Source of the DNA: Candidatus Pacearchaeota archaeon
GTDB taxonomy: Archaea > Nanobdellota > Nanobdellia > Pacearchaeales > GW2011-AR1
DNA: 64,000 nt
Assembly (NCBI GenBank): GCA_049511795.1
Contig: JBEKXS010000001.1
Coordinates: forward strand, 321,497-385,496
Direction of reading: 5' to 3'
Part shown: piece after piece, positions 13,553-41,358 of the stretch
Layout: the number at the start of each line of letters is the position of its first letter
Position numbering within the stretch: the stretch's first letter is position 1
Position numbers and translations under genes: made by a program
The notes under the pieces: generated by a model
The model's input: only the letters and a program-made list of their open reading frames with translations
What the model was told of the DNA's origin: nothing
Database searches by the model: none

Positions 13553-14050
13553 ATGGCAGCGACAACAATATTACAAAGCTCAATCTTTACTGATTTTGCA
13601 TTTCCTTTTCTTCTAGTATTTTTCATACTTTTTGGAATTCTTGAAAAACTAAAGGTTTTCGGAGATGACAAGCATATGCTTAATGCAATGATTTCCTTTG
13701 TTGTTGGCTTGATTTTTGTCGCAGCTGTTTTTCCAAAGGCGATTGTCGGCAATCTGATACTTTTCCTTACTGTTGCAATTGTTGTTGTTTTCATAGCGCT
13801 TTTGCTTTGGGGATTTATGGTAGGTGAAATACCTAAAATTCCTAAAGGTCTTCAAGCAGGTTTAGGAATTGTTGTAATAATTGCAGTTGTTATTGCCGTA
13901 CTTTGGGCAATGGGAATTGCTACAAATACATTTGACTTCTTATTTAATTCAAGTTGGAGCTCAAGCTTCTGGACCAACTTTGCATTTATTGCTGTTGTAA
14001 TAATTGGAATGGCTGTTGCAATTGGTGGAAGCAAAGGCGGAAGTCATTAA
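13553..14050 (+). CDS. hypothetical membrane protein (paralog A)
   Basis: Shares FPFLLVFFILFGILEKLKVFGDDKHMLNAMISFVVGL block with the next ORF. Confidence 0.45.
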   Translation: MAATTILQSSIFTDFAFPFLLVFFILFGILEKLKVFGDDKHMLNAMISFVVGLIFVAAVFPKAIVGNLILFLTVAIVVVFIALLLWGFMVGEIPKIPKGLQAGLGIVVIIAVVIAVLWAMGIATNTFDFLFNSSWSSSFWTNFAFIAVVIIGMAVAIGGSKGGSH

Positions 14051-14124: not shown

Positions 14125-14697
14125 TTGATAAAATGTAATATGTTTGTGCATATTTTAAGTCTTCAGTTTGCAGGATTTTTTGGAGGCGATATCGGAAATC
14201 TTCTTGCTACATGGGAACAAGCAGGAGTTTTCAGTTATGTATTACCATTCTTGTTGATTTTCGCAGTTGTTTTTGGAATTCTTATGAAGATAAAAGTCTT
14301 TGGAGAAAACAGGGGGATAAATGCAGTCATTGCACTTGTCGTAGGACTTCTTTCACTCCAATTCCAATTAGTTCCTGTATTTTTCTCAGAAATCTTTCCT
14401 CAGCTTGGCGTAGGACTTTCTGTTCTGCTGGCTTTGATAATACTTACAGGATTGTTCTTTAGTTCAGAGGAAAATAAAGTTGTTAATTACCTTCTTTTGG
14501 CAGTTGCAGTAATTATCTTCCTGATTGTTATATACAATACAGCTACAAATCTTGGATTTTATTCAGGATACTGGTGGAGTGCGAATTGGCAATGGGTTAT
14601 ACTTGTTGCAGCAGTTATTGGTATTTTGGCAGCTGTTATAACTTCTGGAGCACCAAAAAAAGAAATGCCCCCAATTAAGCTTAATTGGGGCAAATAA
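14125..14697 (+). CDS. hypothetical membrane protein (paralog B)
   Basis: LPFLLIFAVVFGILMKIKVFGENRGINAVIALVVGL block is paralogous to the previous ORF; true start may be the internal Met. Confidence 0.45.
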   Translation: MIKCNMFVHILSLQFAGFFGGDIGNLLATWEQAGVFSYVLPFLLIFAVVFGILMKIKVFGENRGINAVIALVVGLLSLQFQLVPVFFSEIFPQLGVGLSVLLALIILTGLFFSSEENKVVNYLLLAVAVIIFLIVIYNTATNLGFYSGYWWSANWQWVILVAAVIGILAAVITSGAPKKEMPPIKLNWGK

Positions 14698-14733: not shown

Positions 14734-15603
14734 TTATCTTCTCGAAATTTTTTTTATTGTCTTCTTTGATTTTTGCACAAGAATATTTCCTTTATTATCT
14801 TCTTCTCTTTGTATTGGTTGTTGAACAGGTGCTGGTTGTTGCTGCCTGAACACCGGTCTTTTTTCCTCTGCCCTATCTGCTAAATTATTAACAACTTTTC
14901 CAAATGAATCCTGCATCATTCCCATTTCCTTTTTAATAGATTCAAGTCCATCGCCGTAACCTTCAACCTTGTCAAGAATTGATGACTGAAGGCTGTCAAT
15001 TATGCTTTCTATTTTTTTCAGCCTTTCTGAAATGTAATCCACTTTTGACTGAGTAAGAACCTTGAACTCATTCATCTCATCAATTTTTTTCTGTATTGGC
15101 TTGTTTTTTTCAGAGAAAACCTGCTCTGCAACTTCCATCATTGTGTCTGTATCAGGAGCTGCCATTGGTGCATAACCATAACCCTGTTGCTGCGACTGGT
15201 CTTGCATTTCAGGATATTGCTGATATTGCTGTTGTGGATAAAAAGCATTTTGGGGTTCATACATGTCTTCTCCAGGAATTTCTTTTGTTATTTTTGCAGG
15301 CATTCCCATCATTGGCCTACCATATCCCATTCCAGGACTTGGAGGAGTGAGATCTGCATCAGTTATGTCTCCTTCTGTTGGAAGCCTGTCTGGTTCATCT
15401 TCGTTGCCAAGAATTGAATGTTCCATACCCTCTGTCGAGTCTCCTTGCTCATCAAGATTTGAAACAGCGCTTTTTATCTGTGCTCTGCTTAGGGCGTCTG
15501 TTATGTCTGCGGGAGCGAGGCCTTGTTCTGTAAGCTTTTGAATTATTTCTTGATCAGACACACCTTTATTTTTTAAATCAACAACCTGATCTAAAGCACC
15601 CAT
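14734..15603 (-). CDS. hypothetical protein: small N-terminal helical domain, Q/P/M-rich disordered linker, C-terminal coiled coil
   Basis: Compositional features only; divergently oriented to the pilus ATPase operon. Confidence 0.35.
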   Translation of the reverse strand: MGALDQVVDLKNKGVSDQEIIQKLTEQGLAPADITDALSRAQIKSAVSNLDEQGDSTEGMEHSILGNEDEPDRLPTEGDITDADLTPPSPGMGYGRPMMGMPAKITKEIPGEDMYEPQNAFYPQQQYQQYPEMQDQSQQQGYGYAPMAAPDTDTMMEVAEQVFSEKNKPIQKKIDEMNEFKVLTQSKVDYISERLKKIESIIDSLQSSILDKVEGYGDGLESIKKEMGMMQDSFGKVVNNLADRAEEKRPVFRQQQPAPVQQPIQREEDNKGNILVQKSKKTIKKISRR

Positions 15604-15659: not shown

Positions 15660-16070
15660 TCAATCTTTTAATTTTTTTAAATCTTTTTTTCTTACAAATT
15701 CCAAAGGCTGGAACATTTTTGCCTGTTTTGTAAGTAGTTCAAGGTCCTCTTTTCTTGCAAATTTTGAAAATTCAGCAGATGCGCTTTCAAGGAAGGCTAT
15801 CAATCTTTCCATATTTCTTTTTATTTCCTCTAATTCTTTTTTTATTTCAAGAATGTCTGAAGATGTTTTTTCCTTTGTTTCAATAAGATTTTGGCCTATA
15901 AGAAGAATCCTTTCCCTAAGCATTTTCTGTTTTTCCTCCATGTCCCTGAATCTCATGCTTATGTCTGCCAAAAAAGAATCATTATTTTGCTGGATTTCTG
16001 CCATATTTAGAAGAGCACGAATTGGTTTAAATTTGTTGTGTTTATCGATATATTCGTGTGTAATATACAA
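15660..16070 (-). CDS. hypothetical coiled-coil protein
   Basis: Heptad-rich K/E sequence, 136 aa. Confidence 0.3.
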   Translation of the reverse strand: MYITHEYIDKHNKFKPIRALLNMAEIQQNNDSFLADISMRFRDMEEKQKMLRERILLIGQNLIETKEKTSSDILEIKKELEEIKRNMERLIAFLESASAEFSKFARKEDLELLTKQAKMFQPLEFVRKKDLKKLKD

Positions 16071-16102
16071 AGAATTTTAAACATCTCAAGCTTTTTTTTG
16101 AA

Positions 16103-18385
16103 ATGGCTGAACAAGAGGTGAAAATAGGTAGCTATGAAGTAAAAAGAGAAGGTGGAGAAGATATTCTTTACATAAATTATCTTGGCGCTCCATTTGTGCC
16201 AAACATTGCTGATTCGCCTGATGTTATGGCTAAAACAATTGATGCTCTTATAGAAAACCCAAATGCTTCAAGGGTTGTTTTTGTTCAGCAGAAAAATTAT
16301 AATTACAATCTTGAGGAAACGTCAATGCTTCTTGAGATTGCACAACTTTACAATTATTTTTCAAAACAGGAAAGACTTCTTTCCAGAGAAAAAATAGGAG
16401 GAATTGAACAATTCTTCCCACAAAGATACAATGAAATTTTCACATTCATTATGCTTCTGAAACAGGACCCTCTTGCATCTTATTTTGAAATGAAAAAAAT
16501 CCTGATAAACGCAAGGATTCTTTTGGAAAGTTTGGGAACAAGATACAAAATTGACCAAGCAGGATATATCAATCTTATTGAAAGAACTATTTCCTTGCTT
16601 GAGAATACTGTTTTAATTCAGAAAGCAATGCCCTGGCTTTCTGACTACAGGAAAGGAGATAGAGAAATTTATGGAAGAATTTTCAGTCCTGATGTAATAC
16701 CAAATTTCACATTCACAAGACTTGTTTCAGATCTTCCGGAAGACGCAGAAATAATTGACCAGTATGAAATTTCCGGAGAAGAATATGATGTATCGCTTGT
16801 TACAATCCTCAAAAAAATAGATGAACCAAAGTTAATTTATCATGTGATACCCCCAGAAAATGCATTAAGCGAGGATCATTCTGACTTATTGAATACTGCA
16901 AGAAAGGTTCTTATTGAACACCAACCAAAGGCAGAAGAATTTACAGACACTGAAAGAACAAGACAGGTTTTTTTCAATATTTCAAAAGATTTGTTGCAGG
17001 ATTTAAGCCAAAGCAAAAGAATAAATGTAAATTACTCTGATTTGAACAAACTTGCGACAATTCTTGTAAGACACACAATTGGATTTGGACTTATTGAAGT
17101 CCTTCTTCAGGATAAAAAATTGCAAGATATTTCTCTTAATGCTCCTATTTCAATGATTCCTATTTTTGTAAGACACCAAGATTATGATGAATGCATCTCT
17201 AATATTTTGCCAAGTCAGGAAGATACTGACTCATGGGCTGCAAAATTCAGATTGATTTCTGGAAGACCTTTAGATGAAGCAAATCCAATTCTTGATACGC
17301 AGCTTGAAATAGGAAAAATAAGAGCAAGAATAGCGATAATACAGAGACCATTGAGCCCTGATGGACTTGCTTATGCTATCAGAAGGCACAGAGAAGAGCC
17401 ATGGACACTTCCTTTGTTTGTGCAGAACAAGATGATGAATTCTTTCACAGCAGGTCTTATGAGTTTTTTGATTGATGGCTCAAGAACAATGCTTATTGCA
17501 GGAACAAGGAGCTCTGGAAAAACAAGTATTTTGGGAAGCTTGATGCTTGAAATAATTCCAAAATACAGAATTATTGTAATTGAGGATTCTTTGGAACTTC
17601 CTGTTGAATCTCTAAGAGAATTAAAATATGATATTTTAAGAATGAAAGTAAGAAGCGCACTGCTGAAAACAACAACAGAAGTTTCTGCAGACGATGGAAT
17701 AAGAACAAGTCTTAGGTTGGGAGACAGCTGTTTGATAATTGGTGAAGTCAGAAGTTTGGAAGCTCAGGCACTTTACGAAGCAATGAGAGTAGGTGCTTTG
17801 GCAAATGTTGTTGCAGGAACGATTCATGGAGCAAGCCCTTATGCTGTTTTTGATAGGGTTGTTAATGACCTTGATGTGCCAACAACAAGTTTCAAGGCAA
17901 CAGATATCATAGCTGTTGCAAATCCGATAAAAACTCCAGATGGATTGCACCAGTTCAAAAGGCTTGTGCAACTTTCTGAAGTAAGAAAAGAATGGGACAA
18001 AGATCCTCTTGAAGAAAAGGGTTTTGTTGATTTGCTGAGATACAATGTAGAGAAAGATGAGCTGGAGCCAACAGAGGATTTGATAAACGGCGACAGCGAA
18101 ATTGTGAAAGATATTGCCTCAAATGTCAGGGGCTGGGCAGGAAACTGGGATGCTGTTTATGACAATATTCTTTTAAGAGCAAAAGTTAAGCAGGAAGTAG
18201 TCGATGTTGCAGAAAAAACAAAGAATTACAAAATTTTGGAAGCTGGCTTTAACACAGAAGCAAATCATGCATTTCATAGAATTTCAGATAATATCGTACA
18301 AGAAATAGGACTGCCTTTAGGTGAAAGAGTTTTTCCAGAATGGCAGAAATGGCTCAATCAGAAAATCAAAGGAAAGAGCATATAA
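16103..18385 (+). CDS. type II/IV secretion-family ATPase (archaeal FlaI/PilB-like) with a long N-terminal extension
   Basis: Walker A GTRSSGKTS; conserved GEVRSLEAQALYEAMRVG..GTIHG block of VirB11/FlaI ATPases; 760 aa, about 350 aa longer than typical. Confidence 0.8.
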   Translation: MAEQEVKIGSYEVKREGGEDILYINYLGAPFVPNIADSPDVMAKTIDALIENPNASRVVFVQQKNYNYNLEETSMLLEIAQLYNYFSKQERLLSREKIGGIEQFFPQRYNEIFTFIMLLKQDPLASYFEMKKILINARILLESLGTRYKIDQAGYINLIERTISLLENTVLIQKAMPWLSDYRKGDREIYGRIFSPDVIPNFTFTRLVSDLPEDAEIIDQYEISGEEYDVSLVTILKKIDEPKLIYHVIPPENALSEDHSDLLNTARKVLIEHQPKAEEFTDTERTRQVFFNISKDLLQDLSQSKRINVNYSDLNKLATILVRHTIGFGLIEVLLQDKKLQDISLNAPISMIPIFVRHQDYDECISNILPSQEDTDSWAAKFRLISGRPLDEANPILDTQLEIGKIRARIAIIQRPLSPDGLAYAIRRHREEPWTLPLFVQNKMMNSFTAGLMSFLIDGSRTMLIAGTRSSGKTSILGSLMLEIIPKYRIIVIEDSLELPVESLRELKYDILRMKVRSALLKTTTEVSADDGIRTSLRLGDSCLIIGEVRSLEAQALYEAMRVGALANVVAGTIHGASPYAVFDRVVNDLDVPTTSFKATDIIAVANPIKTPDGLHQFKRLVQLSEVRKEWDKDPLEEKGFVDLLRYNVEKDELEPTEDLINGDSEIVKDIASNVRGWAGNWDAVYDNILLRAKVKQEVVDVAEKTKNYKILEAGFNTEANHAFHRISDNIVQEIGLPLGERVFPEWQKWLNQKIKGKSI

Positions 18386-18457
18386 AACTTGTTTTTACTT
18401 CTAAAGATTTATTAATTGTTTTTGACTGTAATTACCATCTATAAAAAGTGGTGAAAA

Positions 18458-20626
18458 ATGGTTCCTGCAAAAGATATTGATGAAATTATTGAAAAATATA
18501 AAGGTAAAATAGAAACGCAGCTGGATACTTATGAGGAAAAAGATGTTGACTACACGCAGGAATATGTAAAATTCAAGAACGAGATGTCTCCAGAGATTTC
18601 AAGATACGAACGTTGGGCAAAAAGTCTTGGAAATGTGATTAAGCTTAAGATTTCTGACAAAGATGCTGCAGTTGTTAAAAAAAATCTCGATATTGCTCAT
18701 CTTGACTTAGAGCCATGGCAGCCTGTTACTCTTAGTGTTATGGCTTTTATGAGCGTTCTTCTTCTTGGTGTTTTGATTTCTGTTGCATGGCTTCTTATTT
18801 CAGGAGGTTTTCCATTCCTTTTCTTTTTGCTTGTCTTGATGTTTTGTTTCTTTGTATTTTATTTTGTAAATGGTTATCCTGCAAGACTTGCAAATTCATG
18901 GAGGTTGAAAGCAAGCAGCCAAATGGTTCCTGCAATACTTTATATAGTTGTTTACATGAGGCATACATCAAATCTTGAAAGAGCTGTTGCATTTGCTTCA
19001 GAGCATCTTGAATATCCTCTTGCCCTTGATTTCAAAAAAGTTTTTTATGATGTGCAAATAGGAAAATTCCCAACAATAAAAGATAGCCTTGACAATTATC
19101 TTGAAACATGGAGAGACTATTCAATTGAGTTCATAGAATCGTTCCATCTTATTGAAAACAGTCTTTTTGAGCCAGATGATGCAAGAAGAATACAAACGCT
19201 AGAGAAAGCATTGACTGTTGTTCTTGATGGTGTTTATGAAAAAATGCTTAGATTCACCTATGAAGTGAAAAACCCATTGACAAACGTTTACATGCTTGGA
19301 GTTGTTCTTCCAACACTTGGACTTGCTCTTCTTCCATTGGCTTCTGCAATGCTTGGAGGATTGTTAACATGGGTTCATGTTTTTATCTTATTTGATTTAA
19401 TAATCCCATTCTTGGTTTTTTATCTGACAGACAAAGTTTTATTCTTAAGGCCTGGCGGAAATGGAGAATCAAACCTTCTTGAAAAAAATCCATTATATCC
19501 TAAGTATAATAGCAAAAAACCTTATATCAAAGCATTTCTGATTACCTTTCCTCTCTTGCTGATTGGTTTGCTGCCATTTATTTTCCAGTTTACCCCGATC
19601 CCCGGAGCACTTGGCATTCCAAATGATTTCACTTTTTCACAATTAGGATTAGGTTTGATTGGCGGCGATGCAAAATTCTTTGATTTCAGGACAAATGATG
19701 CGGGCGGGCTTGTAGGACCATTTGGAATTGGGGCATTGTTATTAAGCATGCTAATTCCATTGAGCATTGCATTATTTTTCTCAATGGCATACAAAGAAAA
19801 AACAAAAGAGCTAATAATTGAAAGGAAGAAAACAAACCAACTTGAAGATGAATTTAATAATTCTTTATTCCAACTTGGAAACACAATTGGAAATGGAACA
19901 CCTCCTGAAATAGCATTCGGAAAAGTTGCAGAAGCTTCAAAAGGTCTGATGACAGAGGATTTCTTCAACAGAGTTAATTATAATATAAGGCAAATGGGTA
20001 TGAGCATTGAAAGAGCATTATTTGATTCAAAAAGAGGAGCTGTAATTTACTATCCTTCTGATTTAATTTCAACGAGTATGAAAATACTTGTTGAGGCTTC
20101 CAAAAAAGGATTGCAGATTGCAGCATTAAGCTTGATGAGCATCTCTGAATATGTTAAAAACATGAACAAAGTCACTGCAAGGCTTAAAGATTTGCTTGCA
20201 GAAGTTATTTCTGACATGAAATCAAACATGTCTTTCCTTGCTCCTTTGCTTTCAGGTGTTGTTGTTGGCTTAGCTGCAATGATAACATCTATTTTAGTCA
20301 AACTAGATATAATAAAATCAATTGGAGGAAGCGCTGCGCAAAGTTTGGGAAGTTTAGGAAATATAGTCAGTATATTCCAAGTGTCTAACATGATTCCTCC
20401 ATACTTTTTGCAGGTAATAATTGGAATTTATCTTATTGAAATTGTATTTATCTTAACTCGTGCCCTTGTTGTTATAGATTCAGGAGAAGACAAGCTTGAG
20501 AGGACAAGCAAGACAGGAAAAAATCTCACGAGCGCGATTCTTCTTTACACAATAACTGCATTCTTGTCAGTGATTGCCCTATTTATTCTTGTATCAATAG
20601 TTGTCGGTAACTTGGGTGCTGCATAA
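18458..20626 (+). CDS. type IV pilus/archaellum assembly membrane platform protein (FlaJ/PilC/TadC-like)
   Basis: 722-aa polytopic membrane protein immediately downstream of the ATPase; duplicated helical-bundle architecture. Confidence 0.55.
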   Translation: MVPAKDIDEIIEKYKGKIETQLDTYEEKDVDYTQEYVKFKNEMSPEISRYERWAKSLGNVIKLKISDKDAAVVKKNLDIAHLDLEPWQPVTLSVMAFMSVLLLGVLISVAWLLISGGFPFLFFLLVLMFCFFVFYFVNGYPARLANSWRLKASSQMVPAILYIVVYMRHTSNLERAVAFASEHLEYPLALDFKKVFYDVQIGKFPTIKDSLDNYLETWRDYSIEFIESFHLIENSLFEPDDARRIQTLEKALTVVLDGVYEKMLRFTYEVKNPLTNVYMLGVVLPTLGLALLPLASAMLGGLLTWVHVFILFDLIIPFLVFYLTDKVLFLRPGGNGESNLLEKNPLYPKYNSKKPYIKAFLITFPLLLIGLLPFIFQFTPIPGALGIPNDFTFSQLGLGLIGGDAKFFDFRTNDAGGLVGPFGIGALLLSMLIPLSIALFFSMAYKEKTKELIIERKKTNQLEDEFNNSLFQLGNTIGNGTPPEIAFGKVAEASKGLMTEDFFNRVNYNIRQMGMSIERALFDSKRGAVIYYPSDLISTSMKILVEASKKGLQIAALSLMSISEYVKNMNKVTARLKDLLAEVISDMKSNMSFLAPLLSGVVVGLAAMITSILVKLDIIKSIGGSAAQSLGSLGNIVSIFQVSNMIPPYFLQVIIGIYLIEIVFILTRALVVIDSGEDKLERTSKTGKNLTSAILLYTITAFLSVIALFILVSIVVGNLGAA

Positions 20627-20646
20627 GAAAAAACATTTATTAACTA

Positions 20647-20829
20647 TTGTTATTTTTATTGGATATGCATGAAAAAAGAGGCCGAAATAAGAAAAAAGGC
20701 ATTGTTTCTGATTATTTGCCTTGGCTGCTGATAGCTATTGCAATTCTTGTTATATTAATGATTGCAATTTTTGTACTGAAGAATCAGGGAACTTCACTCA
20801 TAGACAAAATAAAAGGGATCTTTGGATAA
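20647..20829 (+). CDS. small pilin-like protein (class III signal peptide candidate)
   Basis: KKKG then IVSDYLPWLLIAIAILVILMIAIFVL hydrophobic segment. Confidence 0.4.
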   Translation: MLFLLDMHEKRGRNKKKGIVSDYLPWLLIAIAILVILMIAIFVLKNQGTSLIDKIKGIFG

Positions 20830-20830
20830 A

Positions 20831-20998
20831 ATGCTGACAGAAGAGCAACTGATAAAAATTATTCTTGGGATTCTTGTTTTTGTAGCAGTTGTTGTTGGGG
20901 TTTATCTTATTTTTAAGAATAACATTTTGGATTTTTTCAATAACCTGGGAGGAAATGCAACAAATACTGGAGGATTAATTATTTCATTGATAAAATAA
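20831..20998 (+). CDS. 55-aa single-pass membrane mini-protein (not in supplied ORF track)
   Basis: ATG at 20831; translates MLTEEQLIKIILGILVFVAVVVGVYLIFKNN...; resembles the 33-aa ORF at 21480. Confidence 0.35.
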   Translation: MLTEEQLIKIILGILVFVAVVVGVYLIFKNNILDFFNNLGGNATNTGGLIISLIK

Positions 20999-20999
20999 A

Positions 21000-21476
21000 A
21001 TGAGCAAAAAAGGATTTCTTCTTGCAGAGGAGACATTAAAGATAATAATTGCCATTATTGCAATTGGATTTCTGGTTTATTTTCTTGTTTCACTTTACTT
21101 GTCTGCTAAAACATCTGCTGAATCAGAACAGGCTAAAGCAACTTTGCCATTTATCATAAATGCGATAAACCAATCAAGCTCAAGTGTGGATATTTACAAT
21201 CCAAAAGGGTGGATTATTGGAATATGGCCGCATGCAGTAACCTCTGGCTTTGGGCCATTTCAATCAACTCAAATCGAAAATCCTAAAACATGTAACAATA
21301 TAGGACTGCAAACATGCATATGTATTTGCAGTTCAGACAGCGCAGACAGTTGCAATAGCAATGGGGTTTGTGCAGACAATATGGGCTTTTCAATACAAGG
21401 AACATCTATAACAATAAATAACCCCCCAACGACTCTTATTATTGACAAAACAACTAAAACAATAAGCAAAAAATAA
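21000..21476 (+). CDS. pilin-like protein with class III (prepilin) signal
   Basis: MSKKG|FLLAEETLKIIIAIIAIGFLV: KG cleavage motif, Glu at +5 and 20-aa hydrophobic helix; Cys-rich C-terminal part. Confidence 0.55.
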   Translation: MSKKGFLLAEETLKIIIAIIAIGFLVYFLVSLYLSAKTSAESEQAKATLPFIINAINQSSSSVDIYNPKGWIIGIWPHAVTSGFGPFQSTQIENPKTCNNIGLQTCICICSSDSADSCNSNGVCADNMGFSIQGTSITINNPPTTLIIDKTTKTISKK

Positions 21477-21479
21477 AAA

Positions 21480-21581
21480 ATGGATTTAGATGAGATAATG
21501 AAGTATGTAATATGGATAATTTTTTTTGCAGTTGTACTTGTTGGATTGTATTTATTGCTTAAAAGACTAGGAATCATGTAA
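21480..21581 (+). CDS. 33-aa membrane mini-protein (not in supplied ORF track)
   Basis: MDLDEIMKYVIWIIFFAVVLVGLYLLLKRLGIM; similar to the 20831 ORF. Confidence 0.3.
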   Translation: MDLDEIMKYVIWIIFFAVVLVGLYLLLKRLGIM

Positions 21582-21589
21582 ATAATAAA

Positions 21590-22336
21590 ATGAAAAAAAT
21601 TGAACTTAAAAACAAAAAAGGTGAACTAACAACACAGGAAATTGTTATACTTATAGTATTAATTATTAGTTTTGTTATAATCCTCTTTTTATTACTTAGA
21701 TTGAATTTAGGAGGAACAACAAATGAAGAAATCTGCCATAATTCTGTTGTTTTGAATGGCCAATCAAGTCTTGCTTCAGGACCATTAAATTGCAAAACAG
21801 ACTATCTTTGCATTTCAGGAGGTAGTAGCAACTGTATTAATTTTTTTTCATCAAACAAAATAAGCGTTGTGCAAAACAATAAAACACAAGTAATGAAAGT
21901 ACTTGCTGATAAAATGTCTACATGCTGGTCTGAATTCGGAGAAGGACAGATTGATTACGCAAGTGGAAGTGTATTTGGAAATAAACTATGCGCTCTTTGT
22001 TCAATTGTCAATTTTGATTCAAGCCTTAAGAATTCCCAAATTTCTTATAAAGATTTTTATACCTATTTACAAACAACAAAGAAAACAGATACCCAGACAT
22101 ATTTGCAGTATCTTTATTCCACAAATAATCTGGATGATTTCAACAGTTTTTATTTAACAAATTATTTATCAAATAGCATAGACACAAGCAAGGAATATTT
22201 CATACTAACTGGGATATCAAAAAAATCTGTTTGGGGCTTGTTTGGAAAGGCAAACCAGATTCCTGTTACAATAATGGAAAAGACTCCTGAAAATTATAAT
22301 ACAATAGGCTGTGACCAATTTATAACGAAAGCTTAA
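21590..22336 (+). CDS. pilin-like protein (class III signal candidate)
   Basis: NKKG|ELTTQEIVILIVLIISFVIILFLLL. Confidence 0.5.
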   Translation: MKKIELKNKKGELTTQEIVILIVLIISFVIILFLLLRLNLGGTTNEEICHNSVVLNGQSSLASGPLNCKTDYLCISGGSSNCINFFSSNKISVVQNNKTQVMKVLADKMSTCWSEFGEGQIDYASGSVFGNKLCALCSIVNFDSSLKNSQISYKDFYTYLQTTKKTDTQTYLQYLYSTNNLDDFNSFYLTNYLSNSIDTSKEYFILTGISKKSVWGLFGKANQIPVTIMEKTPENYNTIGCDQFITKA

Positions 22337-22337
22337 A

Positions 22338-22739
22338 ATGATAAAAGCGAGAAAAGGCAATATACTTACTGAAAATGTGATTTTTATTGTACTTAATCTT
22401 GTTTTTATCGCAATTCTCCTTGTTTTTATCTTTTTGAAAGCAGGAAGCGCTGCTGTTCTTGAGGAAAAATATGCAAAACAAATAGCTTTAGCAATTGATT
22501 CTGCTGAACCGGGAATGGTAATACACCTTAATATGCAGGATGCACTTAGCACTGCGAAAAGCAATGGCATCCAACCTGTAGCAGCAGTAAGAATAATTGG
22601 AAACGTTGTTACAGTTAAACTTAGGGATAATGGGGGTTATAGCTATTCTTTCTTCAATAATCTTAATTTTGATAATGGAATATCAAAATATCATCCTGAT
22701 GAAACTAGCACAGGATTTGTCTTTATAATTGGAGGATAA
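22338..22739 (+). CDS. pilin-like protein (class III signal candidate)
   Basis: ARKG|NILTENVIFIVLNLVFIAILLVFIFL. Confidence 0.5.
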   Translation: MIKARKGNILTENVIFIVLNLVFIAILLVFIFLKAGSAAVLEEKYAKQIALAIDSAEPGMVIHLNMQDALSTAKSNGIQPVAAVRIIGNVVTVKLRDNGGYSYSFFNNLNFDNGISKYHPDETSTGFVFIIGG

Positions 22740-23256
22740 AATGAAAAACAAAAAAGGAGCTGACAAAGTAATTTCAGTATACTGGTTTTTCATACTTTTT
22801 TTAGTGGCAGCTGCTATTGTTTACATGGTTTCCTCTTTTTACGGAAAACCATATGACGTAAGGAGCATTGAAGCAGGCTTGCTTGCAGACAAGGCATCTG
22901 ATTGCGTTTCTTATGCAGGATATTTGAGAGATGGAGTTTTAACCCCTGATTTTCAACAGAACATACTTACAAAATGCAATTTAAATTTTAATACAGAAGA
23001 TATTTATGACTGGAAACAGCAAGGGCAATATTTTTTAGATATAAGCTTTTACAAGTTCACTACTTATCCAACTAATCCAAATTTATTGTTTGAAGCTTCT
23101 GCAGGAAATTCAAATTTAAAAGATTTTTGCGGCATTAGTGGTGATACTAATCCTTTTTGTCTTCAAAGAGAATTTTATACTATAGACAAAACAGGGAATC
23201 AATATGCAATAAAAATAACAGCTGTTGTAAGGAAGACTGAAAAAAATGTACAATAA
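22729..23256 (+). CDS. pilin-like protein (class III signal candidate)
   Basis: NKKG|ADKVISVYWFFILFLVAAAIVYMV. Confidence 0.5.
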   Translation: MEDKMKNKKGADKVISVYWFFILFLVAAAIVYMVSSFYGKPYDVRSIEAGLLADKASDCVSYAGYLRDGVLTPDFQQNILTKCNLNFNTEDIYDWKQQGQYFLDISFYKFTTYPTNPNLLFEASAGNSNLKDFCGISGDTNPFCLQREFYTIDKTGNQYAIKITAVVRKTEKNVQ

Positions 23257-23794
23257 TCTTAGAAAAAACAAAAAAGCGCAGGTAGGAGATACAATGACAT
23301 GGGTGGTTGCAACAATAATAATTATAATTATATTAGGAATTTCAATTTTCATTGCTTCAAATTATTTAGGGAATATAAAGAAGATAACAACGCCTTCTGG
23401 CCAGACATATGATATCCCCATTGCAAAATCATTTTATTCCTATCTTTTGACAAAAAATGATGCAGGCCAGTCAGTTTATTCTCAACTGCAAGCAGATAAA
23501 AATCTTAATGATTTTAACGGAAATTTGTCCCTTGATTTGTTTAATGGACAAAGAAAGATTAAAACTTATCAAGGAGCTGGTATTGAAGGCACATTGCTCT
23601 CTGTCAATACAGTTTGGGTTGGCGTAATGAATTATACTACACAAAGCTCTTATGGGATAGTAAACAAATATTTTGGAAGTCAGGGAGTTAAATCCCCCAC
23701 AGCGACAGATTTGATATCTGAATCATTTTGGCTTGATGCAAATCAGAACCAATCTATAAATTTAATCGTTACAAATAATCCGCCAACAAAATGA
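23246..23794 (+). CDS. pilin-like protein (class III signal candidate, Ala at -1)
   Basis: NKKA|QVGDTMTWVVATIIIIIILGISIFIA. Confidence 0.45.
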   Translation: MYNNLRKNKKAQVGDTMTWVVATIIIIIILGISIFIASNYLGNIKKITTPSGQTYDIPIAKSFYSYLLTKNDAGQSVYSQLQADKNLNDFNGNLSLDLFNGQRKIKTYQGAGIEGTLLSVNTVWVGVMNYTTQSSYGIVNKYFGSQGVKSPTATDLISESFWLDANQNQSINLIVTNNPPTK

Positions 23795-24132
23795 TGAAAC
23801 TAATGAAAAATAAAAAAGGAGACATACCTGTCACAATTCTTGTACTTGGAATAGTATTGATTTGCATACTTACTATTGCTAGTTTTTATGTTTCTGCACT
23901 AATCATGAAGAGCAATTTTGATATAGGGGCAATTAAACAAGTAAAACTTATGAGAGAAAAAATAGATGTTTATCAAAATCTTGGAATTCCCGAACCACAG
24001 GCTGAGATTATCATGGGAGTAAAAACTTTAGCACAGGGAAATGCCCAGATAAAATACCTATCTGTTGATTATGGATATATTGCAGTAAATTACACAGTTT
24101 CTTCAGTTAACTCCCCTTCGCCGGTTCCTTGA
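23791..24132 (+). CDS. pilin-like protein (class III signal candidate)
   Basis: NKKG|DIPVTILVLGIVLICILTIASF. Confidence 0.5.
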   Translation: MMKLMKNKKGDIPVTILVLGIVLICILTIASFYVSALIMKSNFDIGAIKQVKLMREKIDVYQNLGIPEPQAEIIMGVKTLAQGNAQIKYLSVDYGYIAVNYTVSSVNSPSPVP

Positions 24133-24169
24133 TAAAAACATTTTTAAACAAAATAAACCTGAATTAAAT

Positions 24170-24505
24170 ATGGAAAGCAAAAGAGGTCAGGAGCTAAGCA
24201 CAAACGCAATTATTATGATTGTTATTGGAATAATTGTTCTTGTTGTTCTTGTTCTTGGATTTACAATAGGCTGGGATAAACTTCTTCCATTCTTTTCAAC
24301 AAACAATGTTCAGAATTTGCAGACAACATGCAATTCAGCATGCGCACAAGGGGACCAGTACAATTTCTGCGCTCTCCCAAGAACTGTTAATGATGGTGTA
24401 AATCCTAAGTTTACAGATAGCTGTTTCAATTTATCTACAAAAGCACAATACACTAGCAGAAACTATGGTATAACGCCGTGCTCATCAATAACTTGCAGCT
24501 CTTAA
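24170..24505 (+). CDS. pilin-like protein with canonical archaeal class III signal
   Basis: SKRG|QELSTNAIIMIVIGIIVLVVLVLGF; Cys-rich C-terminal domain. Confidence 0.6.
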   Translation: MESKRGQELSTNAIIMIVIGIIVLVVLVLGFTIGWDKLLPFFSTNNVQNLQTTCNSACAQGDQYNFCALPRTVNDGVNPKFTDSCFNLSTKAQYTSRNYGITPCSSITCSS

Positions 24506-24672
24506 TTATTATCTGAAATATTTTTAAAGAAACTTCTTCTTAATGTTTTATGGACTATGGATTTTCTGAAAGAAGGAATAAAAGAAAGGTAAAAAAGAAG
24601 GAAAACAAGAAATACCCTTATAAGAAAGGCGGCGGGTATAGGGTAAGGGAAACTGAGGTAAAGAGGTAGATT

Positions 24673-25518
24673 ATGTTTGAAATTATATTTTTGTTTGTTC
24701 TCGGGCTTGCTTGGATTATCTTTGCGACTGTCCAGGATGTGAGGACAAAGGAAATAGCGAACTGGCTTAACTTTTCGCTAATTATTTTTGCTCTTGGCTT
24801 CAGATTTTTTTATTCACTCTTTTTTGCAGGCAATTTCAGCTTTTTTTATCAAGGTCTTATAGGATTTGTAATTTTTATTATTCTTGGGAATCTTCTTTAT
24901 TATGGAAGAATGTTTGCAGGTGGTGATGCAAAACTTCTCATTGCTCTTGGTCCAGTAATTCCATTTTCAGATGCTTTCTCTGTAAATCTTGGAAGTCTTA
25001 TGGTGTTTTTACTTGTTTTCCTTTTCACAGGAGCTATTTACAGCATAATTGTAAGCATTAGCCTAGGAATAAGAAACAGGAAGAAATTTGGAAAAGAATT
25101 CAGAAAACAGTTTAAGATGGGAAAAAGAATAATTATTTCATTCCTAATATTCAGCATAATACTTATTGTTTTGAGTTATTTAGATGGATTGTTTTTGTAT
25201 TTGGGAATACTAACGTTTATTCTGCCTTATCTTTATATTTATGCAAAAAGTGTTGATGAAATTTCAATGGTAAGGGATGTTCCTGTTTTTTCTTTAAGAG
25301 AAGGAGATTGGCTTTATCATGACATTCATGTTGGAAAGAAGACAATAAAAGCAAATTGGGATGGATTGAGCAGGGGAGATATAACTTTGCTAAGAAAAAA
25401 ACGCGAAAAAGGGAAAGTAAAAATAAGAGAAGGCGTTTTTTTCACGCCCGTCTTTTTGATTAGCTATGTTGTTTTCTTCTATTTGTGGAACAAAGGATTA
25501 GGGTATTCTTTTTGGTAG
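24673..25518 (+). CDS. prepilin/preflagellin peptidase (A24 family, PibD/FlaK-like)
   Basis: First catalytic Asp region IFATVQDVRTKEIANW and second Asp in the conserved FAGGDAKLLIALGP (GxGDxKL) motif; polytopic. Confidence 0.75.
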   Translation: MFEIIFLFVLGLAWIIFATVQDVRTKEIANWLNFSLIIFALGFRFFYSLFFAGNFSFFYQGLIGFVIFIILGNLLYYGRMFAGGDAKLLIALGPVIPFSDAFSVNLGSLMVFLLVFLFTGAIYSIIVSISLGIRNRKKFGKEFRKQFKMGKRIIISFLIFSIILIVLSYLDGLFLYLGILTFILPYLYIYAKSVDEISMVRDVPVFSLREGDWLYHDIHVGKKTIKANWDGLSRGDITLLRKKREKGKVKIREGVFFTPVFLISYVVFFYLWNKGLGYSFW

Positions 25519-28743: not shown

Positions 28744-29655
28744 ATGAATAAGATGAAAAGAGGGATAGTTATTGCCCTTGTTTTGTCATTTATCTTAATA
28801 TCTTCCGTCGCTTTTTCTTCTGCTTATATTTTTCCAGATGCATGGAAGCAAATAAATGGGCATGTAATTATTGCTCCTACAGCTCCAACTACTGCTCCTA
28901 CAGCTCCAACAACTACTAAAGGAACTACAGCTCCAACTACTGCTCCTACAGCTCCAACAACTACTAAAGGAACTACAGCTCCAACTACTGCTCCTACAGC
29001 TCCAACAAATTCAGGCAGAGAATCAAAAACTAAAACCATTCCGTTAGTAACTATAGTTATCCCTCCACCGGCAGTTGCACCACCTACACCTTCAACAACA
29101 AATGCAAATAAAGGTGGAAATTCCCCTACTCCAGCTCCTACAACTCCAGCTGTTCCTGTTTCAACAACACCCAACGCAGTTACAACAGTGGTACCACCAA
29201 CAAATGTAACTGAACCAACTAAAACTATTGTAACTACTTATAATAATCAAATTGATAATAAAACTAAAAATGTTACTTCTGTATCTCAAACAAGCATAAC
29301 TTCTACTTGTGAAAATGGATTTAATTTATGCGATAACAATAATGTAACTTTTTGTTCTAACACTGCTTGTCCTTCAGGGAGCGTTTCTAATAGTAGTACT
29401 GCAACTATAACAACTAATACTACTAGTTCTCCACAAGTAATTAAGAATGTAAATTCTACTATTACTATGGTTGCAACACAACTAAATCCTACTACAACAC
29501 TTGTAACAATTTATACTACTCCTACTATTCCTCAAGGAGCAACAAATACTGTAACTCCAACAACTATAGTAACCCAGCTGTATGTAGTTGATTTAGGGTG
29601 TGGGTCTGGGTTTACATTAAAAACCGTTAATAATATAGCAACTTGCTCTAGATAA
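28744..29655 (+). CDS. secreted Thr/Pro-rich (mucin-like) surface protein
   Basis: Signal peptide; TAPTTAPTAPTTTKGT repeats; T/N/S-rich low complexity with scattered Cys pairs. Confidence 0.5.
   Translation: MNKMKRGIVIALVLSFILISSVAFSSAYIFPDAWKQINGHVIIAPTAPTTAPTAPTTTKGTTAPTTAPTAPTTTKGTTAPTTAPTAPTNSGRESKTKTIPLVTIVIPPPAVAPPTPSTTNANKGGNSPTPAPTTPAVPVSTTPNAVTTVVPPTNVTEPTKTIVTTYNNQIDNKTKNVTSVSQTSITSTCENGFNLCDNNNVTFCSNTACPSGSVSNSSTATITTNTTSSPQVIKNVNSTITMVATQLNPTTTLVTIYTTPTIPQGATNTVTPTTIVTQLYVVDLGCGSGFTLKTVNNIATCSR
28872..29010. repeat. 48-nt tandem repeat (about 2.7 copies) encoding TAPTTAPTAPTTTKGT
   Basis: Near-perfect nucleotide tandem copies visible in the sequence. Confidence 0.8.
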
Positions 29656-34184: not shown

Positions 34185-34982
34185 ATGGGTAAAACCATAG
34201 GAATTGTAAGTCTTAAAGGGGGTGTTGGCAAGACAAGCATTGTTGCTGCACTTGGAGGAGCTTTCTCAAACCTGGGAAAAAAAGTCCTTCTTGTTGACGG
34301 AAACCTTTCCTCACCAAGCCTTGGACTGCATCTTAACCTTGTAGAACCAAAGGCAACGCTTCATGATGTTCTTAATAGGACTGCAGGAATAAAAGATGCC
34401 ATATACAAGCTGGATAATTTTGATATAATGCCAGCATCTGTTTTTACCAATTTGAAAGTCAATCCGTTTCTTCTGAAAAGCCAGTTAAAAGAAGTAAAAA
34501 AGAAATATGATGTGATTTTGCTTGACTCTTCTCCTTCTCTTGATGCAGAAACGCTTGGAGTAATGCTTGCTTCTGATGAAATCTTTGTTGTCACAACTCC
34601 AGACCATCCAACAATGAGCGCAAGCATCAAGGCTGCGAAGATTGCAAAGCAGAGAGGAAATCCAATAACTGGAATAATTCTCAATAAAGTCCATAAGAAA
34701 GATTTTGAATTGCCTTTGTCAACTGTTGAAGATACTTTGGAAATGCCTGTTCTTGCTGTTGTTCCTTATGACACAAATGTTCTCCGCGCCTTGGCAAACA
34801 TGCAGCCATATACTGTTTACAAGCCAAGAAGCGAAGGCAGCGAGGAATTAATGAAGCTTGCTGCAACCCTTTCTGGAGAGAAATATTCTGGAAAACCTTC
34901 TTTTATGAATTTCTTCAGAGGATTTATTCCGACAAAACAAGATGTAAACAGAGAAATATTCTATGAAGGTTTTTTTAAATAA
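34185..34982 (+). CDS. ParA/MinD-family P-loop ATPase
   Basis: Deviant Walker A LKGGVGKTS. Confidence 0.8.
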   Translation: MGKTIGIVSLKGGVGKTSIVAALGGAFSNLGKKVLLVDGNLSSPSLGLHLNLVEPKATLHDVLNRTAGIKDAIYKLDNFDIMPASVFTNLKVNPFLLKSQLKEVKKKYDVILLDSSPSLDAETLGVMLASDEIFVVTTPDHPTMSASIKAAKIAKQRGNPITGIILNKVHKKDFELPLSTVEDTLEMPVLAVVPYDTNVLRALANMQPYTVYKPRSEGSEELMKLAATLSGEKYSGKPSFMNFFRGFIPTKQDVNREIFYEGFFK

Positions 34983-35058: not shown

Positions 35059-35165
35059 ATAGCCAGAAAACAAAGTATTAATTTATAAGGGTTTTGATTA
35101 ATCTGAATTGCTAACTCTACGGGACTTTTAGTAAGTCTTAAAAATATCCAAGCCGTTCAGATTTT

Positions 35166-35714
35166 ATGAAGATTGGAGAAACAGAACTTAATATAAACGG
35201 CAAGACAATTAAAGCTTTAGTAACAAAATCTGAAAAGGGAGATAGAGAGCTTTTGAAAAGCCTTTATTCTGATTGGAAGAAACTTAATGATAGATTGAAG
35301 GCTATTTCAACAAGAGGGATAAATATTCCTGAAGCAATAACTGAAAATGCCTTTGCGTTGTTCTTTCCAGACTGTATAAGAGTTGTCAGTCTTAAAGGAA
35401 TGAAATGCTCTTTTGATTGCATAAACACTAAGACAGGCTCAAGAATACAGATTAAGGCTTCAAGCATAGCTTCTGACCTGACTTCTTTCGGGCCGCGCTC
35501 TGAATGGGACGAGCTGTTCTTTCTGGATTTCTCTGCAGGAAACGGCAGTTTCAAAGTATACAAAATAGAGCCAGACTGGGTTTACAAGCATAATGTAAAC
35601 AGAAATCAAACCTTTGAACAACAACAAGCACAGGGAAAAAGACCAAGGTTTTCTATAACAGAGAACATCATTAAGACAAGGAAACTAACACCAGTGAAAA
35701 TCTGCAAATTATAG
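35166..35714 (+). CDS. hypothetical protein, possible nuclease (weak PD-x(n)-QxK pattern)
   Basis: FFPDC...SRIQIKASS; island context next to the MTase/IS genes. Confidence 0.2.
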   Translation: MKIGETELNINGKTIKALVTKSEKGDRELLKSLYSDWKKLNDRLKAISTRGINIPEAITENAFALFFPDCIRVVSLKGMKCSFDCINTKTGSRIQIKASSIASDLTSFGPRSEWDELFFLDFSAGNGSFKVYKIEPDWVYKHNVNRNQTFEQQQAQGKRPRFSITENIIKTRKLTPVKICKL

Positions 35715-35784
35715 AAAATTATATATACTAATTCAACTTTGATTTTTCAGAGGCAAAGGGTTTATAAATATCAAAAGAGGAAAA

Positions 35785-36003
35785 ATGAATATGACAAGTA
35801 AGTATACAAAAATAGAATACATGAAAAGAAAAGAAATAAATTTGGATGCTGGAAATGCTTCTCCAAAAGCGAGAGCTATAATTGAAGCTACTGGAGCAGA
35901 GGATAATTTAATTCTTAGAATTAGTATAAACTCTCCAGTTTTCATAGAAGATGCAGCACCCTTAACAGCAGAAGGTATTACTTCTATCTGTCAAGAAAAT
36001 TAA
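35785..36003 (+). CDS. hypothetical protein
   Basis: ORF only. Confidence 0.25.
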   Translation: MNMTSKYTKIEYMKRKEINLDAGNASPKARAIIEATGAEDNLILRISINSPVFIEDAAPLTAEGITSICQEN

Positions 36004-36005
36004 AA

Positions 36006-36437
36006 ATGAGCTATGATTTCATAATCATAGACACCATAATTTGTGATTCTTATAACGAGGCTATGTATGATTTAAGTAATCCTTTTAGAGCTTCATTATT
36101 AAAATTACAAGAAATATCTGGGAATAAAGTTGCCGATAAAAAGAGACCTTTATTGTTCATAACTCTTGACACAAAAGGATTAGTAGAAAAAAAGTGTGTC
36201 AATGTTAATAATGAACTTCCGATAACTTATAGTTGTTTATTAGGGGCTTGTGGAAACATTGATATTTTTGGTAAGGATGAAGCAGATTCTATATTAAAAA
36301 GTTCAAGCTTCTTAAAATGGATGGAAAGGAAATTTTGTATTCTCACTGGAAATTCTTTATTAAAAACAATGTTATCTGAGAATGGATTTGAAGTTTACGA
36401 TTTATCCCAAGTAGACACTTTAATAGGAAAATTATGA
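36006..36437 (+). CDS. hypothetical protein
   Basis: ORF only. Confidence 0.3.
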   Translation: MSYDFIIIDTIICDSYNEAMYDLSNPFRASLLKLQEISGNKVADKKRPLLFITLDTKGLVEKKCVNVNNELPITYSCLLGACGNIDIFGKDEADSILKSSSFLKWMERKFCILTGNSLLKTMLSENGFEVYDLSQVDTLIGKL

Positions 36438-36581
36438 TTTCTTTTTCTTAGGCTCTTTATCCCAACGGGAACTTTTACATTTAGGGCATATAAGAGGCTT
36501 CTCTTTCTCTGAACGAGGCTGCCATTTATATCCACAGTTATTGCACTTGTATCCTTTGACTTTAATCTCAATTTCTGGCAT
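36432..36581 (-). CDS. 49-aa zinc-ribbon mini-protein (not in ORF track)
   Basis: Translates MPEIEIKVKGYKCNNCGYKWQPRSEKEKPLICPKCKSSRWDKEPKKKKS; two CxxC pairs. Confidence 0.35.
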   Translation of the reverse strand: MPEIEIKVKGYKCNNCGYKWQPRSEKEKPLICPKCKSSRWDKEPKKKKS

Positions 36582-36666
36582 ATCCTTTCTAAGAAATCAC
36601 ACCTTATAAATCTTACTAATCATAGTAATACTTTACAATAGAAATGTTTATAAAGGTGGTATTACT

Positions 36667-37581: not shown

Positions 37582-37584
37582 AAG

Positions 37585-38550: not shown

Positions 38551-38689
38551 TTTTTTTGGGAGATTAAGTCCCGAAGAATTAACAATACATGATTAATCAG
38601 ACTTTGCACGACAAAGTAATTCTGCACGAGAATAAAGGTTTCTGCACGGAAATGCAAATGGTTAAAAGTTAAGGAATCTTTCTTGATTT

Positions 38690-41344: not shown

Positions 41345-41358
41345 AGAGGGGAGGGTTT

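Follow-up and report, generated by a model that had tools for sequence, protein, structure and literature searches.

Organization of the Operon

The 64,000-nucleotide stretch of Candidatus Pacearchaeota DNA studied here (contig JBEKXS010000001.1; hereafter, the window) carries an operon of pilus-like genes at 16103-25518, on the plus strand throughout. The operon opens with genes for an assembly ATPase of 760 amino acids (aa) and a platform protein of 722 aa, which are followed by a short prepilin of 54 or 60 aa, depending on the start codon, a mini-protein of 55 aa, a prepilin of 158 aa and a second mini-protein of 33 aa; the second half holds prepilins of 248, 133, 171/175, 182, 109/113 and 111 aa, a basic open reading frame (ORF) of 39 aa and, at the end, a prepilin peptidase of 281 aa. 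The intergenic distances range from -11 to +72 nt, the widest lying between the ATPase and the platform and those downstream of the platform being at most 44 nt, and this tight spacing is consistent with a single transcript. A scan for sigma-70 promoters and intrinsic terminators was uninformative, as these models are not applicable to archaea. The initial annotation of the stretch, made from its letters and ORFs, had described a contiguous, same-strand locus, and the ORFs that it listed indeed all lie on the plus strand where it placed them; independent public gene calls on identical contigs agree with the ORF models (54, 55, 158, 33, 248, 133, 171, 182, 112/113, 111, 39 and 281 aa), and the exact platform protein is present on 20 public contigs. 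The annotation was mistaken in starting the locus at 15660: that coordinate belongs to a coiled-coil ORF on the minus strand (15660-16070), and the operon itself begins at 16103. The proteins of the window are archaeal in character, including the PolD large subunit, RadA, TFIIB, eIF2-alpha, ribosomal protein S3Ae, SRP54/FtsY, EF-1beta and an RPA-like protein, and its guanine plus cytosine (GC) content is ~33%.

Within this one operon lie the four parts that define a type IV filament, namely a secretion ATPase, a platform, substrates with class III signals and an A24 peptidase. We therefore regard it, with a probability of roughly three in four, as a complete and vertically inherited archaeal type IV pilus-like filament biogenesis system of a Pacearchaeota-type member of the DPANN, one whose function we can only infer. 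The locus is a real, lineage-specific archaeal type IV filament system, ordinary in kind and representing expected biology.

Assembly ATPase

The first gene (16103-18385, +) encodes a member of the T2SSE/VirB11-FlaI-GspE-TadA superfamily, recognized by Pfam and PDB matches and by its motifs. In line with the FlaI/PilB-type ATPase of the initial annotation, the protein passes the Pfam T2SSE hidden Markov model (HMM) with 48.2 bits (cutoff 24.9), and its nucleotide-binding motifs are complete: residues 467-474 form Walker A, 493-496 the Asp box, 547-550 Walker B and 572-575 the His box. Among structures in the PDB, it matches afGspE of Archaeoglobus (2oap, E 7e-29), bacterial CpaF (E 5e-20) and FlaI (E 1e-13). 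The scores against the NCBIfam models for FlaI (117.6 bits, cutoff 550) and the TadA family (113.3 bits, cutoff 373) are both well under their cutoffs, which places the ATPase in the superfamily and outside every curated equivalog. A public protein that is 100% identical carries the name 'ATPase, T2SS/T4P/T4SS family' and is assigned to a Ca. Pacearchaeota archaeon.

An N-terminal extension of the ATPase, earlier put at about 350 aa, is present and is considerably shorter. Residues 29-398 of afGspE align with residues 216-607 of the query and positions 54-502 of the FlaI model with residues 246-702, which leaves an extension of ~190 aa (16103-16678, +). It is lineage-specific and is retained at full length in 57 of 62 related loci. 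A profile made of the N-terminal 220 aa of 30 orthologues found no match in the PDB at E<=10, and the only Pfam hit of the extension, to SpoIIP (E 0.084), was below threshold and at chance level.

The ATPase is highly conserved: among its 5537 homologues, the best 120 are 75-95% identical. Some of the orthologues contain an intein. One of them (P0306, 1279 aa) has Pfam intein/LAGLIDADG domains, and in a related locus (L052:12366-16109), the tblastn match to the ATPase is interrupted by ~1.5 kb at the Asp box, at a point corresponding to residues ~491-497 of the window protein (about 17573-17593). Inteins tend toward highly conserved proteins, and their presence would fit the 75-95% identity.

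Platform Protein

The second gene (18458-20626, +) encodes a polytopic protein with ~9 hydrophobic segments that separate two cytoplasmic helical domains, and its assignment as a platform comes from distant homologues and structure modeling. The initial annotation had called it FlaJ/PilC-like and had named failure against the T2SSF HMM as a refuting outcome. The protein's own sequence fails this HMM, whereas its distant relatives and its fold do lead to the family. A scan of 1.84 billion cluster representatives yielded 1044 relatives, and 36 of the 62 full-length homologues at 23-32% identity match Pfam T2SSF, the best with E 1.1e-15. A profile of the platform family found as its best PDB match the cytoplasmic domain of GspF, only at E 0.24; within the second cytoplasmic domain, the alignment covers a helical stretch that we take to be the conserved T2SSF core. 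The AlphaFold2 model, built from 71 sequences, has a mean predicted local distance difference test score (pLDDT) of 90.3 and a predicted TM-score (pTM) of 0.87, and in Foldseek it matches the cytoplasmic domains of EpsF and OutF with probabilities of 0.98-1.0 and TM-scores of 0.68-0.75, all other hits having probabilities of at most 0.21. We thus count the platform as T2SSF-like by transitive homology and fold and not by a direct HMM match.

The platform is encoded by one gene in all 80 related loci, and a comparison of its N-terminal and C-terminal halves with hhalign (E 7e-4, probability only 26%) makes an internal duplication suggestive only. It has more than 3268 close homologues, the best 120 of which are 67-90% identical. 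Judged from sequence and model, it is a predicted fused, single-gene and highly divergent protein of the GspF/TadC/FlaJ type.

Prepilin-Like Substrates and Associated Small Proteins

Class III signals were sought with a regular expression and hydropathy calculation of our own, which demanded a short basic leader with [KR][GA] as its last residues and, after it, a hydrophobic stretch of at least 15 residues. Eight ORFs of the operon have such a predicted signal, with a few polar or acidic residues between the [KR][GA] and the hydrophobic stretch, in agreement with the eight short prepilin-type ORFs announced earlier; the example then quoted, SKRG/QELSTNAIIM (a slash marks the predicted cleavage site), is found in the ORF at 24170. 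The signal is present in 8/11 small ORFs of the operon and in 1-2 of the ~60 genes that make up the rest of the window (Fisher p ~5e-7, with gene counts that are approximate), and the eight prepilin-like ORFs contain no twin-Arg motif. The pattern recurs in related loci: where both platform and peptidase are present (n=42), 5-10 signal-bearing ORFs (median 8) lie between the two genes, and the 335 ORFs from these 42 loci share the leader consensus M-x-N-K-[KR]-[GA], the next residue being mostly Q, E or D. In an all-vs-all BLAST of the pilins, similarity was confined to the N-terminal leader and helix, with no sign of paralogous ectodomains, and the diversity of C-terminal domains noted in the initial annotation is thereby borne out. 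So is its remark that several of the proteins are rich in cysteine, with 6, 8, 4 and 6 Cys in the ORFs of 158, 248, 175 and 111 aa, respectively.

The shortest of the prepilins (20665-20829, +), recognized by its regex/hydropathy signal, has 54 aa when read from ATG, or 60 aa with the TTG at 20647 as start codon, and begins MHEKRGRNKKKG/IVSDYLPWLL.... Its orthologues, found in 37 loci with a median identity of 59%, make it the best conserved of the pilins, the others reaching 31-39%, and they share the motif [KR][KR]G/I[VI][ST][DE]YLPW. The mature form would be ~42 aa long and consist of the helix, without a globular domain. Being the best conserved and lacking a globular domain, like the Flp and EpdE pilins, this protein is our candidate for, and most likely, the bulk (major) subunit.

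The seven larger prepilin-like proteins vary in their conservation. The 158-aa protein (21000-21476, +; MSKKG/FLLAEETLKIII..., 6 Cys) has orthologues in 40 loci and belongs to no Pfam or NCBIfam family. The 248-aa protein (21590-22336, +; MKKIELKNKKG/ELTTQEIVIL...) is supported by its signal, its homologues and an AlphaFold2 model; every one of the 210 homologues is annotated as 'hypothetical' and none has a Pfam domain, and in their alignment, the leader, the helix and the eight cysteines are invariant or nearly so. The model (pLDDT 87.7) consists of a transmembrane helix at residues 15-38 and, after it, a compact globular alpha/beta domain. The next two genes encode a protein of 133 aa (22338-22739, +; MIKARKG/NILTENVIFIV...), which has the signal and orthologues in 49 loci, and one of 171 aa from ATG or 175 aa from the TTG at 22729 (22741-23256, +; MKNKKG/ADKVISVYWFF..., 4 Cys), with orthologues in 42 loci. 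The signal-bearing protein of 182 aa (23246-23794, +; MYNNLRKNKKA/QVGDTMTWVV...) was found by tblastn in 16 loci, and that of 109 aa from the third ATG (23803-24132, +; 113 aa from 23791; MKNKKG/DIPVTILVLG...) has orthologues in 20. The last of the series, with a signal and 111 aa (24170-24505, +; MESKRG/QELSTNAIIM..., 6 Cys), has them in 38.

Two membrane mini-proteins were said to be interspersed among the prepilins, and both turn out to be conserved genes. The single-pass protein of 55 aa (20831-20998, +) lacks a basic leader and has orthologues in 20 loci; it begins with M(S)ELTIEQLIK, similar to the start of the 248-aa prepilin in its predicted mature form, and the protein matches Pfam Flp1_like with E 1.7e-4 and 21.4 bits, below the cutoff of 33.5, as do 5 of 19 orthologues at E<=0.01. 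The 33-aa protein (21480-21581, +) has one transmembrane segment and orthologues in 25 loci with a median identity of 55%. Its N-terminus is acidic and its C-terminus basic, a charge pattern that predicts a topology opposite to that of a pilin. A tiny and very basic ORF of 39 aa (24550-24669, +; MDYGFSERRNK...YPYKKGG, in full MDYGFSERRNKRKVKKKENKKYPYKKGGGYRVRETEVKR) is backed by a public gene call and by its conserved position: it ends 3 nt before the start of the peptidase, and this position is kept in at least nine related loci.

Prepilin Peptidase and the Question of an Archaellum

The last gene (24673-25518, +) encodes the class III signal (prepilin) peptidase, a FlaK/PibD-like A24 protein of 281 aa identified by Pfam and by alignment to FlaK. 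The earlier claim that an A24 peptidase closes the locus holds: the protein scores 44.3 bits against Pfam Peptidase_A24 (cutoff 26.5), and in the alignment to FlaK (3s0x, E 6e-9), D22 (VQDVRTKEI) and D85 (AGGDAKLL) fall on both conserved Asp motifs, which we take to be the catalytic pair of FlaK. The motif had been given as GxGDxKL; an Asp of catalytic type is there, in a sequence that actually reads FAGGDAKLL, that is, A-G-G-D and not a literal GxGD. With ~6 hydrophobic segments, the peptidase is predicted to be of the FlaK/PibD-like form and not the form with nine transmembrane segments (9-TM). Its best NCBIfam match is the FlaK model at 40.5 bits (cutoff 330), and orthologues are present in 42 loci.

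KEGG-style annotation as flaI, flaJ and flaK would suggest that the locus encodes an archaellum and thus serves motility; the best NCBIfam models for the ATPase and the peptidase are FlaI and FlaK, and studies of Woesearchaeota do count flaI, flaJ and flaK among motility genes. The two models are, however, far from their equivalog cutoffs (117.6 against 550 for FlaI and 40.5 against 330 for FlaK), and the ATPase is nearer to afGspE and CpaF than to FlaI. None of the nine signal proteins, that is, the eight of the operon and one of 609 aa encoded elsewhere in the window, matches an archaellin family (searched at E<=1 to 10 for the eight and at E<=0.01 for the 609-aa protein). Nor did the operon, or a scan of 46 ORFs of the window, yield a homologue of FlaH, FlaF, FlaG or FlaC/D/E/X, all seven of which are indispensable in archaea with an archaellum. 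We thus reject the archaellum as a scarcely credible explanation of the locus, and more generally, flaI, flaJ and flaK matches by KEGG in these lineages should not be taken as motility.

Conservation and Genomic Neighborhood

In a scan of one genome per species, 186 related loci were found in metagenome-assembled genomes (MAGs) labeled Pacearchaeota, Woesearchaeota, Nanoarchaeota or Nanoarchaeia. Over the 80 loci that were fetched, the median identity is 67% for the ATPase, 59% for the platform, 59% for the short pilin and 31-39% for the other pilins. The whole neighborhood is syntenic in ~35 long contigs of Pacearchaeota, Woesearchaeota and Nanoarchaeota MAGs, in the order of two membrane-protein paralogues, two divergent coiled-coil genes, ATPase, platform, pilins, peptidase, HIT, EF-1beta and RPA. 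Even in a relative with a platform of only ~24% identity, the ATPase is followed by the platform and then by many small ORFs with a [K]G leader. The Pacearchaeota/Woesearchaeota radiation has inherited the operon vertically, as an ancestral trait.

The genes directly upstream of the ATPase share in this synteny. Two paralogous proteins with 4-5 transmembrane segments (13553-14050 and 14125-14697, both +) and two soluble, divergent coiled-coil proteins on the minus strand (14734-15603, 289 aa; 15660-16070, 136 aa from TTG, 114 aa in public calls) are found in this place in more than 40 related loci. The two coiled-coil genes, whose products have no transmembrane segments, adjoin the ATPase in 53-54 loci, also in the clade with an inverted platform gene described below, and one of the four proteins has a Q/P/M-rich linker. 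When the four were searched against families and the PDB, all hits were below threshold and amounted to noise of a coiled-coil or hydrophobic kind. The proteins could be accessory to the pilus or mere syntenic neighbors, and we do not claim them as parts; for the two coiled-coil proteins, a role as cytoplasmic accessory proteins is possible.

Related loci also differ from the window in places. In one sub-clade (L043-L079, e.g., L045, L054 and L062), the platform gene alone is inverted, giving pilins (-), platform (+) and ATPase (-) in an order that is otherwise the same. No inverted repeats that could make an invertible switch were found flanking the platform gene of the window, and the inversion in the relatives therefore looks like a fixed rearrangement of a single gene. 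Two further loci carry insertions between the ATPase and the platform. In the first (L021:5315-9922, +), the insert encodes a 1535-aa protein that has a Sec signal and a PQQ_2 beta-propeller (E 2.8e-13) and weakly matches S_layer_C; in the second (L022:7587-9911, +), it encodes a 127-aa membrane protein and a secreted 628-aa protein with a Sec signal. By analogy, the large Sec-signal proteins may be pilus-associated adhesins, recalling the PilY-like ones.

The conservation of the locus invites a bolder view, in which the operon is an essential host-interaction organelle of the Pacearchaeota/Woesearchaeota radiation, representing a distinct, unclassified branch of type IV filaments whose fiber bridges or penetrates hosts for DNA or metabolites. 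It draws on the near-housekeeping conservation of the ATPase (75-95% among the best 120 of 5537), the inteins that some relatives carry at the Asp box and the fixed synteny with core genes, and the fused platform, the novel 190-aa N-domain of the ATPase, the Flp-like helix-only fiber subunit and the leaderless, Flp-like mini-subunits could be the hallmarks of such a branch. If true, some of the 'pili' observed on ultra-small cells from groundwater would be fibers of this kind. We consider this view unlikely.

Weighing the Identification

Several observations weigh against the identification of the operon as a type IV pilus-like system. The prepilin-like proteins have no Pfam or NCBIfam match, be it to a pilin, an archaellin or a class-III-signal family, and the FlaFind motif, in the form that we assume, would not accommodate several of their residues at +2 to +4 (E, D, G, P). 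The model of the 248-aa prepilin found no matching fold in the PDB with Foldseek (probability <0.06), so that its label as a 'pilin' derives from its N-terminus and its context. The platform's own sequence matches nothing in Pfam or NCBIfam at E<=1 and nothing in the PDB at E<=10. Within the proposed filament, the choice of the 54-aa protein as the major subunit is made on conservation and size only. Finally, the shared synteny includes the housekeeping genes for HIT, EF-1beta and RPA and is by itself no proof that every ORF is linked; as it spans such genes, adjacency alone does not place the upstream genes in the pilus machine.

Comparison with Known Systems

The generic type IV filament (TFF) systems of archaea have been catalogued (Makarova, Koonin & Albers 2016, PMC4858521; Sivabalasarma & Albers 2026, bioRxiv 10.64898/2026.04.22.720090), and their minimal set consists of an ATPase, a platform, a pilin and a class III peptidase. 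Like them, the locus has an ATPase, a TadC/FlaJ-type platform, subunits with class III signals and an A24 peptidase. Lineage-specific N-terminal domains of the ATPase are typical of subsystem diversification (bioRxiv 10.64898/2026.04.22.720090), and the ATPase here likewise has one. Unlike the generic systems, the operon has a single 722-aa platform that escapes the T2SSF HMM and pilin ectodomains that match no known family, and it unites eight pilins, the peptidase and two mini-proteins.

Among specific systems, the locus is reminiscent of the Epd pilus of Methanococcus maripaludis (TFF system 1, also present in some DPANN) in that one large operon holds numerous pilin-like genes along with a peptidase of its own. 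In its predicted mature form, the short prepilin would resemble the Epd major pilin in being helix-only, without a globular domain, and the ATPase scores better against the Tad-type CpaF than against FlaI. However, Epd and system 1 have two separate platform genes where the operon has one fused gene, and the Epd peptidase is of the 9-TM arCOG02300 form whereas that of the operon is FlaK/PibD-like with ~6 hydrophobic segments. With its single platform gene and FlaK-like peptidase, the locus does not fit Epd/TFF system 1.

The bacterial Tad/Flp (type IVc) pili have a short, helix-only pilin, as the operon is predicted to have, and the ATPase of the operon is similar to CpaF (E 5e-20). Flp pilins carry the processing motif G/xxxxEY; in the short prepilin, G/I[VI][ST][DE]Y, the pair of acidic residue and Tyr comes one residue earlier, and the 54-aa protein has no match among the Flp-family Pfam models. 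The weak Flp1_like match of the 55-aa mini-protein, below the gathering score, and two homologues of the platform that are named 'Flp pilus assembly protein TadB' by the Joint Genome Institute also recall Tad. Unlike the Tad systems, which have TadB plus TadC, the operon has a fused platform, and it lacks a secretin and outer-membrane components, which would not be expected in an archaeon anyway. A bacterial Tad/Flp system is ruled out by the fused platform, the sub-threshold TadA-family score (113 vs 373) and the archaeal organism.

Pilus loci have been described from other ultra-small and host-dependent DPANN, namely Mia14 Micrarchaeota, Nanohaloarchaeota, Undinarchaeota and LFWA lineages, with a TadA/FlaI-like ATPase, a platform and a FlaK-like peptidase, and their pili have been proposed to mediate host contact or exchange. 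As in other DPANN reports, the pilins of our locus are poorly conserved and lack annotation. In those loci, the pilins were often unidentifiable and the platforms consist of TadB plus TadC, whereas the locus studied here has the full conserved set of pilins in cis, with a defined consensus of their leaders.

A different use of the same parts would be a short pseudopilus or surface-anchoring stalk, of a secretion type or resembling the bindosome, that displays or exports proteins without forming a long fiber. Many varied pilin-like subunits together with one helix-only subunit do recall sets of pseudopilins, Sec-signal surface proteins of 1535 and 628 aa sit inside the operons of L021 and L022, the window has a pair of a 609-aa prepilin-signal protein and a 2252-aa surface protein, and archaeal type IV machineries with binding proteins that bear class III signal peptides (SPIII) have been proposed in the literature. 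The substrates of the locus, however, are 54-248 aa in length and include no class-III-signal substrate-binding protein (SBP), no match to an SBP family having been found among them, and the ATPase scores 59 bits against the NCBIfam BasE model, whose cutoff is 1000; the bindosome is rejected on these grounds. At the sequence level, nothing tells a pseudopilus from a pilus, and taking the two sides together we consider a pseudopilus or stalk very unlikely.

Assembly and Function

By analogy with known type IV filaments, the assembly of the proposed pilus would proceed as follows. The prepilins would insert in the membrane with their basic leader on the cytoplasmic side, where the peptidase would remove the leader, cutting after the G/A at the cytoplasmic face of the membrane. 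A hexamer of the ATPase would dock on the cytoplasmic domains of the platform and power the removal of mature subunits from the membrane; these would then polymerize helically through their N-terminal helices. The short pilin, with its mature form of ~42 aa, would form the shaft. The seven larger prepilin-like proteins, four of them with cysteines, have unrelated C-terminal domains and would most likely serve as minor, priming or tip subunits, and a multi-subunit fiber with minor or tip pilins, as the initial annotation had envisaged, is a reasonable inference.

The pilus would most plausibly serve attachment, whether the target is a surface, a host or a partner cell. The presumed episymbiotic lifestyle, the Sec-signal surface proteins inserted in the operons of relatives and the pair of the 609-aa and 2252-aa proteins all argue for this. 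The same machine could instead serve chiefly for the uptake of environmental or host DNA, or of other macromolecules from these sources, making it a competence-type pilus and not an adhesin. DPANN are assumed to have minimal biosynthesis, and the very high conservation of the ATPase would fit an essential function in acquisition; moreover, the window has a dprA homologue at 41359-42279, and the literature proposes DNA import by pili in DPANN, with comEC and dprA alongside pilin genes in ultra-small cells. However, no ComEC-like channel, DNA-binding pilin or retraction ATPase was seen in the operon or the window, and the dprA homologue lies 16 kb away, not syntenic with the locus, in a low-GC island rich in insertion sequences (IS) and restriction-modification (R-M) genes. 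Uptake as the chief function is, in our judgment, quite unlikely, and adhesion stands as the preferred role.

Novelty and Significance

Some of what we describe is already known: type IV pilus loci occur in several DPANN groups, and the ATPase of this locus is named in public annotation. According to a 2020 preprint, DPANN lack the components of type IV pili, a claim that the published version no longer makes, and pilins have repeatedly been reported as unidentifiable in these organisms. The literature that we searched, with coverage that is incomplete, held no description of this Pacearchaeota operon. Standard annotation of the locus recognizes only the ATPase and the peptidase, leaving the platform and all pilins as 'hypothetical'. 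What is distinctive here is the fused platform that the T2SSF HMM does not see, the 190-aa N-domain of the ATPase, the defined leader consensus, and the helix-only pilin together with the leaderless mini-proteins.

Abundant and uncultivated, the DPANN of the Pacearchaeota/Woesearchaeota type are presumed to be host-dependent, and the locus may bear on how they attach to their partners. The full operon, the N-K-[KR]-[GA] leader and the candidate helix-only subunit provide targets for metaproteomics, for fitting in cryo-electron tomography and for heterologous processing.

Other Features of the Window

The ninth prepilin-signal protein of the initial annotation is indeed encoded outside the operon (53272-55101, +; 609 aa) and starts with MRNKKG/QVTIFIIIAVV...; it is the sole convincing signal-bearing ORF elsewhere in the 64 kb. 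Directly 3' of its gene is that of a surface protein of 2252 aa with a Sec-type signal (55103-61861, +; MKKKMSKKERILTRKNFSAIPIIGLFLILTLFFVSFVSAQG). Neither protein has a Pfam or NCBIfam match. The 609-aa protein is a possible candidate for a pilus-associated adhesin, paired with the giant surface protein. Another ORF (28744-29655, +; 303 aa, or 300 aa from 28753; MKRGIVIALVLSFILISSVAFSSAY) passed a loose filter and was not counted as a prepilin: it begins MKRG/IVIALVLSF...SSA/Y, with a short hydrophobic region and an SSA/Y site typical of Sec signals, and has no family match.

The segment at ~35100-43400 has a low GC content (0.30-0.32) and looks like a mobile or defense island. It holds genes for a Bsp6I-type restriction endonuclease (35166), an IS240-type DDE transposase (36667), a C5 DNA methylase (37585), an N6/N4 methylase on the minus strand (39389) and a DDE_Tnp_1 transposase (42333), as well as the dprA homologue (PF02481, E 1.4e-59), which is the only competence-related gene seen in the window. 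Finally, a MinD/ParA-family ATPase (AAA_31, CbiA, ParA) is encoded at 34185-34982 (+), at a distance of 8.7 kb from the operon; for some euryarchaeal type IV pilus systems, a link to ATPases of the FleN/MinD type has been described.

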